From assembly GCF_045037415.1 (NCBI RefSeq), contig NZ_CP173438.1: a stretch of DNA of 64,000 bases; one strand, 5' to 3'. The notes beneath the pieces were generated by a model. It was not told the DNA's origin. It saw only the letters and a list, made by a program, of their open reading frames with translations, and searched no databases. Positions 4,557 to 41,697 of this stretch are shown here, piece after piece. A program made the position numbers and the translations under genes. This DNA is from Escherichia coli (lineage in GTDB: Bacteria; Pseudomonadota; Gammaproteobacteria; Enterobacterales; Enterobacteriaceae). Each line of letters starts with the position of its first letter. Within the stretch, counting starts at the first letter, position 1.

Positions 4557-4693
4557 TGCCTTTATCGCCGCCGGAGCACGTCCGGCGGCGCTATTCACGC
4601 TGATCTCCTGTGACTCGACGCGGCAGATAATGTAGTATCTCCGGCAATATTGCCCCTTTGAAGGCTGGCGAATAAGTTGAGGAATCAGAATTA

Positions 4694-9411: not shown

Positions 9412-9422
9412 TGGACCAATTC

Positions 9423-9448
9423 AATGCCCCACAGAGTGGTGGGGCATT
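9423..9448 (+). terminator. Stem-loop immediately downstream of ftsP (putative terminator)
   Basis: AATGCCCCAC-AGAGTG-GTGGGGCATT, perfect 10-bp inverted repeat 12 nt after the ftsP stop; no strong T-run follows. Confidence 0.5.
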
Positions 9449-9481
9449 GAAAATTACTCAGTATGCAGTCTTCATTGTGTA

Positions 9482-20702: not shown

Positions 20703-20901
20703 CTGTTTTTCACCTCTCCGTTGCGTTTATCCCGGATATAGATGAGTTGTTCTTTTAAGAGCTTCCGGCTCTGCATGATGATGTCCTTATATTTGGCATT
20801 CCTGAACAAGGAAGAGTAGCAACGGGCGGGACGCGAGGGGAATAAATGATTTCTGAAAAGTCCGGTAGCGGAACATTACCGCCACCGGGAGAATTTGCAC
20901 G

Positions 20902-21729
20902 TTAGCCGCCGAACTGGTCAGGATCGGGACCGAGACGCTTGCCCTGATCGAGTTTTGCAATTTCGCCAAGTTCGTCTTTGTCGAGACGGAAATCCCAGAC
21001 ATCAAAGTTTTCGACAATGCGTGAAGGTGTGACCGATTTTGGGATCACCACCAGGCCGCTATCCAGATGCCAGCGGATAACAATCTGCGCAGGGGTTTTG
21101 CCGTATTTATCTGCCAGATCGCGAATGACTTTCTGATCGAAAACGCCTTTCCCTCCTTGCGCTAATGGGCTCCAGGATTCGGTCTGGATTTTGTGTGTCG
21201 CGTTCCAGGCATGTAGCTGGCGTTGTTGCATCAGCGGGTGAAGTTCGATCTGGTTTATCACAGGCGTCACGCCAGTTTCATCAATCAGGCGTTGCAGGTG
21301 ATGGATCTGGAAGTTGCACACGCCGATGCTTTTGATTAATCCCTCTTTTTGCAATTCGATCATGCCTTTCCATGCTTTGACATAATGGTCGATAGCGGGA
21401 ACGGGCCAGTGCATTAAATAGAGGTCGATATAATCAAGCTGGAGTTTTTTCAGGCTGTCGAGCAGGGCTTCGCGGGGGCGCTTGTGGTCGTCGTTCCACA
21501 GCTTAGTGGTGATGAACAGTTCTTCTCTGTTGACTGAGGCATTTTTCAGGGCTTTGCCGACACCTTCTTCGTTCTTGTAGGCCGCGGCGGTATCAATCGA
21601 GCGATAACCCACTTCTAACGCTTTTTGAATGGCGGTGATTACTTCCTCATTACTTGCTTGCCAGACGCCCAGTCCCAGCTGGGGCATGACATTGCCATCC
21701 TGTAGCTTAATAACGGTTGGATTAGCCAT
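20902..21729 (-). CDS. dkgA: 2,5-diketo-D-gluconate reductase A / methylglyoxal reductase (aldo-keto reductase)
   Basis: 275-aa ORF MANPTVIKLQDGNVMPQLGLGVWQ... with AKR catalytic tetrad context. Confidence 0.95.
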   Translation of the reverse strand: MANPTVIKLQDGNVMPQLGLGVWQASNEEVITAIQKALEVGYRSIDTAAAYKNEEGVGKALKNASVNREELFITTKLWNDDHKRPREALLDSLKKLQLDYIDLYLMHWPVPAIDHYVKAWKGMIELQKEGLIKSIGVCNFQIHHLQRLIDETGVTPVINQIELHPLMQQRQLHAWNATHKIQTESWSPLAQGGKGVFDQKVIRDLADKYGKTPAQIVIRWHLDSGLVVIPKSVTPSRIVENFDVWDFRLDKDELGEIAKLDQGKRLGPDPDQFGG

Positions 21730-21749
21730 ACGTTCCTCCTTTATATGAA

Positions 21750-21773
21750 CTCACCGGAGCAGGCTCCGGTGAG
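21750..21773 (-). other. Intercistronic stem-loop between yqhD and dkgA
   Basis: CTCACCGGAG-CAGG-CTCCGGTGAG, perfect 10-bp stem, directly upstream of the dkgA Shine-Dalgarno on the minus strand; possible partial terminator or processing site. Confidence 0.5.
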
Positions 21774-21833
21774 GTGTTGTGAACTTAAGTCTGGACGAAA
21801 TGCCCGAAAACGAAAGTTTGAGGCGTAAAAAGC

Positions 21834-22997
21834 TTAGCGGGCGGCTTCGTATATACGGCGGCTGACATCCAGCGTAATGTCATGATTTTCGCCCAGTTGG
21901 GTCATGCCGTGCTCTTCCAGTTTTTTCAGCAAAGCCGGGATGGAGCTGCCGTCCAGACCGTAGTCGGAGAGGTGGGTCAGCACGCCTAATTGCTCAAAGA
22001 AATTGCGGGTTGCGGCAATCGCGGCGTCAATACGCTCATCGTCTGAACCTTCAGTGATGTTCCAGACGCGTTCAGCATATTGCAGCAGCTTAGCGCGCTT
22101 GGTATCGCGTTTTTCATTCCACAGTGCAGGCAGGACGATAGCCAGTGTTTGCGCGTGATCCAGACCGTGCATCGCAGTCAGTTCGTGGCCCAGCATATGC
22201 GTTGCCCAGTCCTGCGGTACGCCAGCGCCGATCAAACCGTTCAGCGCCTGAGTCGCCGCCCACATGACGTTGGCGCGCACATCGTAGTTTTCTGGCTCTT
22301 TCAGGGCTTTCGGACCATCTTCGATCAGCGTCAGCAAAATGCCTTCTGCGAAACGGTCCTGAATTTTGGCATCAACCGGTTTGGTAACATACTGTTCCAC
22401 GGTGTGTACAAAGGCGTCCACTACGCCGTTAGCCACCTGACGCGGCGGCAGGGTGTAGGTATAAACCGGATCGAGCACGGCAAATACGGGCTGAACATGG
22501 GCAGAATGGAACGCCTGCTTGTCGCCTGTGGTTTTACGGGAGATCACCGCGCCTGCGTTGGATTCTGAACCGGTTGCTGGCAGCGTCAGCACACAGCCCA
22601 TCGGGATGGCGCTTTTAATCTCTTTACCGCCCGTTTGCAGAATGTGCCACGGATCGATATTTTCCGGATAGTTAGCCGCTGCGGCGATAAATTTGGTGCC
22701 GTCCAGTACAGAACCGCCGCCAACCGCCAGCAGGAACGTCACTTTCTGTTCGCGAACCAGTTTCACGGCGTTCATCAGCGTTTCATAAGCCGGGTTTGGT
22801 TCAATACCGCCAAATTCCAGTACGTCCATGCCTTTCAGGGCATCCAGAACTTGATCGAGAACGCCGGTTTTTTTCACGCTGCCGCCGCCGTAGGTAATCA
22901 ATACGCGAGCATCGTGAGGAATTTGTTCGCGTAAACCAGCGATTGCGCCTTTACCAAACAGAATGCGGGTTGGGGTGTGCAGATTAAAGTTGTTCAT
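21834..22997 (-). CDS. yqhD: NADPH-dependent aldehyde reductase (iron-containing ADH family)
   Basis: Track ORF 21834..23021; preferred start is ATG at 22997 ([22 protein letters not shown]...), giving 387 aa. Confidence 0.95.
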
Positions 22998-23133
22998 TAC
23001 TTGCTCCCTTTGCTGGGTCAATATGAGGGCAGAGATCGGTCTGCCTGATGTTTTTCATTGTGGTCGCCAGCGCCGTACCTCTCAATGCTCATTTCTGCCA
23101 ATGTCTTGCCTATTTCTCCAGAGTGCTGGAGAA
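22998..23133. promoter_or_regulatory. Divergent yqhD / yqhC promoter region
   Basis: Intergenic gap between divergent genes; contains inverted repeats (GGCAGA-N6-TCTGCC at ~23025-23042, TCTCCAG-AGTG-CTGGAGA at 23115-23132). No binding sites verified. Confidence 0.5.
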
Positions 23134-24090
23134 ATGCTACAAAATTGCGCACAATCAAATTGCCGCATTATTCCTAAGAAATTACGCGATATGAAACGTG
23201 AAGAGATTTGCCGCTTGCTGGCGGATAAAGTTAATAAACTGAAAAATAAAGAAAATAGTTTGTCAGAGCTGTTGCCCGATGTGCGTTTGTTGTATGGCGA
23301 GACGCCTTTCGCACGCACACCGGTGATGTACGAGCCTGGCATCATAATTCTCTTTTCCGGGCATAAAATCGGTTATATCAATGAACGCGTGTTTCGTTAT
23401 GATGCCAATGAATACCTGCTGCTGACGGTGCCGTTGCCGTTTGAGTGCGAAACCTATGCCACGTCAGAGGTGCCGCTGGCAGGGTTGCGTCTCAATGTCG
23501 ATATTTTGCAGTTACAGGAACTGTTGATGGACATTGGCGAAGATGAGCATTTCCAGCCGTCGATGGCAGCCAGCGGGATTAACTCTGCCACGTTATCAGA
23601 AGAGATTTTATGCGTGGCGGAGCGGTTACTCGACGTGATGGAGCGACCGCTGGATGCGCGTATTCTCGGCAAACAGATCATCCGCGAAATTCTGTACTAC
23701 GTGCTGACCGGACCTTGCGGCGGCGCGTTACTGGCACTGGTCAGCCGCCAGACTCACTTCAGCCTGATTAGTCGCGTGCTGAAACGGATTGAGAATAAAT
23801 ACACCGAAAACCTGAGCGTCGAGCAACTGGCGGCAGAAGCCAACATGAGCGTATCGGCGTTCCACCATAATTTTAAGTCTGTCACCAGCACCTCGCCGTT
23901 GCAGTATTTGAAGAATTACCGTCTGCATAAGGCGCGGATGATGATCATCCACGACGGCATGAAGGCCAGCGCGGCGGCGATGCGCGTCGGCTATGAAAGC
24001 GCATCGCAATTTAGCCGTGAGTTTAAACGTTACTTCGGTGTGACGCCGGGGGAAGATGCGGCAAGAATGCGGGCGATGCAGGGGAATTAA
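23134..24090 (+). CDS. yqhC: AraC-family transcriptional activator of yqhD-dkgA
   Basis: Track ORF 22963..24090; preferred start ATG at 23134 (MLQNCAQSN...), 318 aa with a C-terminal AraC HTH. Confidence 0.9.
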
Positions 24091-24129
24091 ATACGTTCCC
24101 GGTACAGCAACCGGGAACGGGGAAAATCG

Positions 24130-27539: not shown

Positions 27540-27574
27540 ATGCCCGGTTGCTTTTCACAACCGGGCATTTTTTT
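27540..27574. terminator. Bidirectional rho-independent terminator between exbD and yghA
   Basis: GCCCGGTTG-CTTTTCA-CAACCGGGC followed by a T-run; the minus-strand yghA stop abuts it. Confidence 0.8.
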
Positions 27575-31266: not shown

Positions 31267-31384
31267 TGGGTTTATCTCTTACAGGATTACGTCTTAAACA
31301 AGCATGAAAAAATAGCGTGCGCAAATGTCGTTCTTTGCCTAAAATATCGCTATATATGACAATATATAGCGAATGAGGTGAACG

Positions 31385-37811: not shown

Positions 37812-38145
37812 GTTGTCGCTTTGCCAGAGCGCCGTTGAAATTATCCAACGGCAGGCGGAGCAGCACGATGTTAAGCGCGTCACCGCCGTGTGGCTGGAAA
37901 TTGGCGCGCTCTCCTGCGTTGAGGAGAGCGCCGTCCGTTTTAGTTTTGAAATTGTCTGCCACGGAACGGTGGCGCAAGGGTGCGATTTACATATCGTCTA
38001 TAAACCCGCCCAGGCCTGGTGCTGGGATTGCAGCCAGGTGGTGGAGATTCATCAGCACGATGCGCAGTGTCCGCTCTGTCATGGCGAGCGGTTGCGTGTC
38101 GATACCGGCGATTCGCTGATCGTCAAAAGTATTGAAGTTGAATAA
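37804..38145 (+). CDS. hybF: Hydrogenase nickel-incorporation protein (HypA paralog)
   Basis: Track ORF 37750..38145; preferred start ATG at 37804 (MHELSLCQSAVEII...), 113 aa with the C-terminal CxxC...CxxC zinc motif. Confidence 0.92.
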   Translation: MHELSLCQSAVEIIQRQAEQHDVKRVTAVWLEIGALSCVEESAVRFSFEIVCHGTVAQGCDLHIVYKPAQAWCWDCSQVVEIHQHDAQCPLCHGERLRVDTGDSLIVKSIEVE

Positions 38146-41406: not shown

Positions 41407-41697
41407 TACATGTTGTAGCAACCCCGTACTGATTATGAAGAATAATCAGTACGGGGATTAATCAAAACATTCAATATTTATATATTCCAATATTTATTCA
41501 TTTTATATGTGAATATATTAACCAGCAGAATACCTGTGTTTTGATTATTTCTAAAGGTTTTGAATGAATGCTTATTGTCTGATACACAAGAAATAACACG
41601 CTTTTTATCGTTAAAAAATGATATTTCACTTTGCCCATGCCGTTAAAGTCACTGATAATGCGTCCGTTCGTAAATTCAAAATGGCGTAATCTAATAT

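Follow-up and report, generated by a model that had tools for sequence, protein, structure and literature searches.

A covarying stem-loop between yqhD and dkgA is conserved across enteric bacteria

Stem-loops at the 5' end of a transcript, of the type known from the ompA 5' untranslated region, reportedly stabilise the RNA that carries them, and classical 5'-terminal stabilisers tolerate only about 2-4 unpaired nucleotides. The hairpins of the malE-malF REP sequence and of the Rhodobacter puf operon are intercistronic barriers to 3'-exonucleases. A further described element, the sRNA ES173 (Rfam RF02753), is said to have been catalogued from E. coli RNA-seq. In this study, we analysed a stem-loop in the spacer between the yqhD and dkgA genes of Escherichia coli, within a stretch of 64,000 nt (assembly GCF_045037415.1, contig NZ_CP173438.1), which is referred to here as the window. 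The hairpin is like the ompA-type stabilisers in being a stable stem-loop upstream of a ribosome-binding site, in having a conserved structure with a variable loop and in that it would lie near a 5' end, either the predicted or the published one; it differs from them in that the predicted transcription start leaves about 7 unpaired nt before the stem (1-4 nt with the published ACA end), and in that dkgA is also transcribed by read-through from an upstream promoter. With the malE-malF and puf barriers it shares its place between two genes of the same operon and a G+C-rich stem that lacks a U-tract; however, it is a single-copy hairpin outside the dispersed repeat families and has no Term-seq 3' end. 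Rho-independent terminators and attenuators resemble it in their G+C-rich stem, which here is 10 bp long and closed by a tetraloop, but the hairpin has neither a U-tract nor a 3' end in vivo and the gene downstream is fully co-induced, whereas the dkgA terminator 900 nt downstream has the stem, the U-tract and the 3' end. ES173 lies at the same locus and on the same strand, and its model includes the first 6 nt of the 5' arm, but the hairpin falls outside the structure modelled for that family.

The yqhD-dkgA spacer is 104 nt long, counted from the yqhD stop codon at 21834 to the dkgA ATG (Table 1). A query of 251 bases around the hairpin matches 5,410 of 5,426 complete E. coli genomes (query coverage of 80% or more, identity of 95-100%), and in these matches, including those with 100% identity, the flanking genes are annotated in RefSeq as yqhD and dkgA; the gene order in MG1655, with yqhC on the opposite strand followed by yqhD and dkgA, is in agreement with this. 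The first-pass annotation of the window had placed a perfect 10 bp stem-loop between these genes on the minus strand, directly upstream of the AAGGAGG of dkgA, and this is borne out by sequence, fold and annotation, with the hairpin ending 8 nt before the Shine-Dalgarno sequence. The loop had been quoted as CAGG, which is correct for the plus strand (CTCACCGGAG-CAGG-CTCCGGTGAG) but not for the coding strand, where it reads CCUG; in the minus-strand RNA, the 3' arm is followed by UUCAUAUA and then by the Shine-Dalgarno sequence. Seven of the 10 bp are G-C pairs, and the isolated hairpin folds with -17.8 kcal/mol (z -5.8), a fold equalled by none of 200 shuffled sequences. In E. coli strain E69 (L003 4165..4272) the loop on the mRNA strand is CAGG instead of the CCUG seen elsewhere, which is an exact flip of the loop. 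A small ORF in the spacer was considered and rejected, as no ATG, GTG or TTG is present upstream of the hairpin.

Table 1. Window coordinates of the features of the yqhD-dkgA region
Feature	Position	Strand	Basis or remark
yqhD	21834..22997	minus	ORF list, RefSeq annotation, MG1655 record
Rfam RF02753 (ES173 sRNA) match	21768..21831	minus	99 bits against a gathering score of 90
T-rich block A, CUUUCGUUUU	21807..21816	minus	At least 90% identity in these columns in 39 species; about -35 to -26 of the predicted start
Conserved block UCCAGACUUAA, read as a -10 element (hexamer CAGACT, 21793..21788)	21785..21795	minus	Column counts
Predicted dkgA-proximal transcription start, A of the conserved CA	21780..21780	minus	MG1655 about 3156572; predicted from column counts
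ACA nearest the published dkgA 5' end	21775..21777	minus	Position from sequence; 1-4 nt upstream of the hairpin
Stem-loop CUCACCGGAG-CCUG-CUCCGGUGAG, perfect 10 bp stem, 4 nt loop	21750..21773	minus	Sequence, fold, covariation
dkgA Shine-Dalgarno sequence AAGGAGG	21735..21741	minus	Sequence; begins 8 nt 3' of the hairpin
dkgA	20902..21729	minus	ORF list, RefSeq annotation, MG1655 record; ATG at 21729
True dkgA terminator, CCGGUGGCGG...CCGCUACCGG then ACUUUUC	20856..20888	minus	Sequence; contrast case

The hairpin pattern occurs once in the window, where no copy is expected by chance, and a search allowing 3 mismatches still returns one match. Across E. coli genomes it is found at a median of one place per genome (n=5,317), with at least 99% identity in 5,282 of them. 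It is therefore not a dispersed repeat, and a REP or similar palindromic element was ruled out on this ground. When stems of 10 bp or more and loops of 3-8 nt are considered, the window has nine distinct perfect hairpins, which make up 12 redundant entries because the scan counts some hairpins at more than one loop length; dinucleotide shuffling gave 0.38 entries per shuffle, so perfect hairpins as a class are non-random in the window. Others with stems of 10-15 bp are located at 4566..4590, 9420..9451, 24094..24119, 27540..27568, 31347..31372, 37906..37931 and 41422..41456, and the one at 24094..24119 lies just past a long plus-strand ORF (22963..24090) that contains yqhC.

A YqhD scan with one genome per species gave 80 loci. 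The yqhD-dkgA arrangement holds through the Enterobacteriaceae, with a spacer mostly of 99-109 nt, and a G+C-rich hairpin is present at the same place in loci of Escherichia, Salmonella, Citrobacter, Klebsiella, Raoultella, Enterobacter, Leclercia, Kosakonia, Phytobacter, Kluyvera, Pseudocitrobacter, Cedecea, Shimwellia and Entomohabitans and also in Buttiauxella noackiae. The arms vary by genus yet stay complementary (CUUACCGGG/CCCGGUAAG, CCACCAGAGG/CCUCUGGUGG and CUCAGCGGAA/UUCCGCUGAG). Covariation was assessed on an alignment of 39 distinct Enterobacteriaceae spacers, with column shuffles and a slid partner as controls. The proportion of paired cells in the hairpin is 90.4%, as against 78.7% in the column shuffles, none of 500 of which reached the observed value, and the slid partner pairs only 29-48% of cells. 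Compensatory double changes are found in nine of the ten stem pairs, and the covariation score is 0.414 compared with 0.204 for the control. When whole spacers with their flanks were given to RNAalifold, the hairpin was the sole helix predicted, with compensatory changes in 8 of 10 pairs. On the mRNA strand, 13 cells are G.U wobbles and 4 are A.C or C.A, and this excess of G.U favours an RNA of the sense strand over a DNA operator or an antisense RNA. The stem-loop is thus a real RNA structure that evolution has conserved across enteric bacteria, and its conservation with covariation in other genera speaks most strongly against a chance origin.

A covariance model built in this study finds the module in every Enterobacteriaceae locus searched, and solely between yqhD and dkgA; no genome was found in which the module is split from either gene, and at the apparent exception, L050, dkgA is present but broken by frameshifts. 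In Limnobaculum, Budvicia and Aeromonas, where yqhD is the last gene, a plain terminator follows yqhD and the module is missing. The stem starts 12-16 nt past an invariant T (T-7, see below) of the upstream block in nearly all species, and in spacers of about 100 nt it ends 17-25 nt before the ATG. In six loci, namely Citrobacter L011, L017, L018 and L056 together with L030 and L040, the hairpin and the ribosome-binding site are separated by an insert, which we take to be an ERIC element from its consensus. This insertion of about 120 nt between hairpin and Shine-Dalgarno sequence, found in six species, has left the hairpin beside the upstream block with its pairing intact. In another Citrobacter (L027) an ERIC element splits the upstream blocks, and its end supplies TTGAAG 16 nt before CAGACT. 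Kluyvera and Pseudocitrobacter have a terminator-like hairpin after yqhD and upstream of the module.

Several side observations were made on rearranged relatives. The spacer has received ERIC-like elements in independent events, at several points, in Citrobacter, Pluralibacter, Serratia and Yersinia (L052 and L051 in addition to the loci above), and in Buttiauxella L032 and L035 a longer ERIC-like palindrome stands in place of the hairpin. At L041 (4165..4434) the hairpin ACACCGGGCTTGCCCGGTGT is present twice, flanking an insert of about 165 nt, and this duplication looks as if an element had inserted with duplication of its target. Some Serratia and Yersinia (L053, L059 and L066, with spacers of about 1,260-1,410 nt) contain an extra alcohol-dehydrogenase-like gene between yqhD and dkgA, of which other Serratia keep only a remnant (noted at L052, L054 and L057). 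Upstream of the Serratia dkgA we found an inverted repeat, GTTAGCAAAC-N14-GTTTGCCAAC, which abuts the -10-like ACTAGAATTTAT; its position at this element suggests that Serratia dkgA may have a different local regulator. In Yersinia similis (L055 5486..5592, minus strand) there is a match to Rfam Ysr224 (Yersinia sRNA 224) of 129.9 bits just downstream of dkgA.

The hairpin belongs to a well-known operon and adjoins, and lies partly inside, an existing Rfam family; a possible internal promoter and the unsupported structure of ES173 are by-products of its analysis. The RF02753 match begins 3 nt past the yqhD stop codon, takes in the first 6 nt of the 5' arm at its other end and exceeds the gathering score, so that membership applies to the spacer upstream, with only those 6 nt of the hairpin inside. 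At the gathering score, the family was found in Escherichia only, among 20 loci tested. We submitted the consensus stem-loop of ES173 (AACUU..GUUU..GGGC / GUCC AGAC..AAGUU) to the same kind of test, and it has 77.4% paired cells against 76.6% in the shuffles and a covariation score of 0.111 against 0.105; 125 of 500 shuffles score as high. Changes at the CCAGAC block, which forms part of this stem, are mostly uncompensated. The ES173 stem-loop shows no covariation and is missing from the RNAalifold consensus, and it was rejected as a conserved structure. Upstream of the hairpin, conservation of the spacer concerns the sequence and not a structure.

Upstream of the hairpin lies a conserved block with C at -13, A at -11 and T at -7 and -6, each in 39 of 39 spacers, when it is numbered as a -10 element; in this reading, it runs C(-13), C, A(-11), G, A, C, T(-7), followed by TAA at -6 to -4, and variation is seen at -10, -9 and -8. 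Counterparts are ACTAGACTTAA in Cedecea and, in Yersinia and Serratia, ACTAAACTTAC and ACTAGAATTTA before dkgA and TGCTAGGCTTTAG directly after yqhD, and each of these Yersinia and Serratia blocks is then followed by its own G+C-rich hairpin. The extended -10 consensus of sigma-S is TCTATACTTAA. The same string occurs in a paper on sigma-S promoter recognition. Going by its base sequence, the block reads as a -10 element of the sigma-70 family with sigma-S features, and hence as a candidate promoter: A-11 and T-7 of a -10 hexamer, and C-13 as for sigma-S, are all present in 39/39. A conserved CA dinucleotide further downstream, with C at -1 in 31 of 39 and A at +1 in 27 of 39 spacers, mostly lies 7 nt from T-7, the distance in E. 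coli being 8 nt, and a start at its A would put about 7 unpaired nt before the stem. Measured against the sigma-70 consensus TATAAT, CAGACT matches at 3 of 6 positions and has C at -12. No TTGACA-like hexamer is present 16-18 bp upstream of the block, promoter scans of E. coli, Cedecea and Serratia returned nothing at it, and a canonical sigma-70 promoter, which the scans do not report, was rejected as a candidate; sigma-E, sigma-54, sigma-32 and sigma-28 promoters do not fit by eye. Positions -12, -10, -9 and -8 do not follow the consensus and yet hardly vary, which suggests that something besides RNA polymerase constrains them. The T-rich block A (CTTTCGTTTT) has no match to TTGACA, and the Rfam stem in which it pairs with the CCAGAC block shows no covariation, so that in spite of its conservation it is neither a -35 hexamer nor part of a covarying stem. 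In Pseudocitrobacter, this T-rich block is the T-tail of the extra terminator-like hairpin (GCCAGAC..GTCTGGC), the 5' arm of which is like the CCAGACTTAAGTC block.

Published data bear on the 5' end of dkgA transcripts. From RNA-seq coverage profiles obtained under mazF overexpression, a dkgA 5' end has been reported at a cleaved ACA, 47 nt ahead of the start codon (Sauert et al. 2016; PMC5001579, Table 1). In E. coli O157:H7, yqhE, which is the old name of dkgA, was up by log2 2.86 at the transition to stationary phase and clustered with rpoS and its regulon, and yqhD is absent from the main text of that paper. After loss of a restriction-modification system, yqhE was up at the time point of the sigma-S regulon genes, and the paper in question lists it among oxidative-stress-inducible genes.

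We tentatively favour the view that dkgA transcripts have the hairpin near their 5' end, as a conserved stem-loop that stabilises them, although we infer the promoter as well as the exact position of the 5' end and the stabilisation. According to this model, dkgA transcripts would start just upstream of the hairpin, in addition to those arising by read-through from the YqhC-activated yqhD promoter. They might do so at an internal sigma-S-type promoter, with the conserved CCAGACTTAA block as its -10 element and a start about 7 nt upstream of the stem, or through endonucleolytic cleavage in the CA-rich linker, at the ACA 1-4 nt upstream of the stem. A stem-loop of -17.8 kcal/mol at or near the 5' end would then hinder decay that depends on the 5' end (RppH, or RNase E entry and scanning), and it would also keep upstream sequence from pairing with the Shine-Dalgarno sequence. 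RNA polymerase would pass the hairpin, and YqhC-driven co-expression of yqhD and dkgA would be unaffected. We lean towards the 5'-leader reading because the structure covaries on the sense strand and keeps a fixed distance to the upstream block, because hairpins separated from the gene by ERIC elements stay by the block and the module is missing where yqhD is last, and because of the promoter-like invariant positions, the data on dkgA expression (among them the 3' end of the dkgA terminator, listed solely at LB OD 2.0), the published ACA end and the leader fold, in which the hairpin forms independently and the Shine-Dalgarno sequence remains unpaired in a loop. The proposal of the first-pass annotation that the hairpin stabilises a processed dkgA transcript is in this sense plausible: a published ACA end just upstream, and a fixed distance to a promoter-like block and not to the ribosome-binding site, speak for it indirectly.

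Other findings point the opposite way. The putative -10 element is weak by the sigma-70 standard, there is no -35 element and the promoter scans are empty, which argues against the 5'-leader reading, as do the little-varying non-consensus positions and the origin of the ACA end in coverage profiles under mazF overexpression. The predicted 7 or so unpaired nucleotides, set against the tolerance of classical stabilisers, count against a 5'-terminal stabiliser, and the ES173 RNA covers the region upstream of the hairpin and is thus a better fit to RNAs that end at the hairpin than to RNAs that start there. A wider version of the same idea, to which we give somewhat guarded credence, is that the spacer would be a second control point and not a passive junction or an sRNA gene, with CCAGACTTAA as a sigma-S-type promoter that gives YqhC-independent dkgA expression in stationary phase and with the hairpin as its conserved leader.

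RNAs ending at the hairpin are the starting point of the main rival explanation, which we regard as rather unlikely. Here the hairpin would be a barrier to 3'-exonucleases: cleavage in the AU-rich UUCAUAUAAA and trimming by PNPase and RNase II up to the stem would protect the yqhD message and leave a stable fragment of its 3' untranslated region, the one catalogued as ES173. The ES173 match starts shortly after the stop codon of yqhD and reaches into the 5' arm, so that an RNA with its end at the stem, or near it, is already on record; however, the ES173 model ends inside the 5' arm and not at the 3' foot, where a trimmed end is expected. The module lies directly 3' of yqhD also in those Serratia and Yersinia in which a gene other than dkgA comes next, and such barriers usually take the form of a stable G+C-rich stem that lacks a U-tract; against this, yqhD as the last gene has a plain terminator without the module, and the Term-seq table for three conditions contains no 3' end in the spacer in spite of its detection of the dkgA terminator. 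The 5'-leader reading and the exonuclease barrier are not mutually exclusive.

It seems improbable that the hairpin merely insulates the ribosome-binding site, keeping the Shine-Dalgarno sequence of dkgA accessible in two-gene and one-gene transcripts alike with no effect on RNA stability. In the minimum-energy fold of the E. coli spacer, ACGCCUC, just 3' of the yqhD stop codon, pairs with the dkgA Shine-Dalgarno sequence, so alternative pairings exist that a local hairpin could limit, and the short distance of 17-25 nt between stem and ATG in spacers of about 100 nt, as well as the looped-out Shine-Dalgarno sequence of the leader fold, would suit such a role. However, this long-range pairing is absent from the RNAalifold consensus of the spacers and is not conserved, and on this ground anti-Shine-Dalgarno pairing as a means of translational coupling was ruled out too. 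Moreover, the hairpin is intact in the six species in which an ERIC element now holds it apart from the Shine-Dalgarno sequence.

The first-pass annotation had also proposed that the hairpin attenuates read-through from yqhD into dkgA, which would make it a weak intrinsic terminator or a pause site. We consider this distinctly doubtful. Of the features of a terminator, the G+C-rich stem is present, and a U run and 3' ends in vivo are lacking. The strong stem is followed by UU and then by CAUAU, and a few relatives have better tails (GUGUUUUUCGC in Cedecea and UUUCAUAU in Pseudescherichia); but the tail UUCAUAUA is not a U-tract, a terminator scan reports no site at the hairpin, and the 8 nt after the stem contain 0-5 T in the relatives, with no conservation. 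Adams et al. 2021 give a curated Term-seq table for LB OD 0.4, LB OD 2.0 and M63, which in its complete form lists no 3' end in the spacer, and with its thresholds applied it has no entry at MG1655 31565xx or 31566xx in any of the three conditions. The same table (Adams et al. 2021) lists an end at MG1655 3157494, which corresponds to about position 20858 of the window and is that of the dkgA terminator, and this end passes the threshold only in the LB OD 2.0 sheet. Furthermore, it has been reported that vanillin induces YqhD 35-fold and DkgA 41-fold, together, and that both the yqhD and the dkgA mRNA are up in yqhC gain-of-function mutants. Lacking a U-tract and a Term-seq end, and with the two genes co-induced, the hairpin is unlikely to have attenuation as its conserved function.

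That the palindrome acts as DNA, whether as an operator bound by a dimeric protein or by forming a cruciform, is highly improbable: it is a perfect repeat with a 4 bp spacer, the core CCGG..CCGG is its best-conserved part and the flipped loop of one E. coli lineage (CAGG for CCUG) is a DNA-level event typical of palindromes, but its arms change between genera and stay complementary (CCACCAGAGG, CUCAGCGGAA and AUCGUCGGAGG), unlike a sequence-specific operator, the sense strand shows an excess of G.U wobbles, and gSELEX finds a single YqhC site, in the yqhC-yqhD spacer.

A second YqhC site in the yqhD-dkgA spacer (ATTTCGTCCAG, which is like the half-site ATTTCTCCAG) was also considered, and was discarded in view of the one site reported elsewhere by gSELEX. 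The yqhC-yqhD spacer contains a second perfect palindrome, ATTTCTCCAG-AGTG-CTGGAGAAAT, at 23112..23135 of the window (-12.5 kcal/mol), and on the yqhC strand its 3' arm includes GGAG as well as the A of the ATG with which yqhC starts. The palindrome is conserved in sequence across the Enterobacteriaceae, and Serratia has the double changes TTCTACAA..TTGTAGGAA. This palindrome may serve as the operator for YqhC, or else as a hairpin in which the yqhC Shine-Dalgarno sequence is sequestered.

Among NADPH-consuming aldehyde reductases, YqhD and DkgA are the main targets of deletion or overexpression in metabolic engineering, for instance for tolerance of furfural and vanillin or for the production of diols and alcohols, and the two genes are normally handled as a single operon under the control of YqhC. 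The curated Rfam family ES173 models a stem that has no evolutionary support, and the only covarying helix sits just outside the model; if the spacer is a second control point, ES173 would represent promoter DNA together with debris of the yqhD 3' untranslated region. A conserved leader structure, possibly combined with a separate stress promoter, would account for the stationary-phase and stress responses of dkgA in studies that are silent on yqhD, and it would offer a defined target for tuning the DkgA:YqhD ratio.
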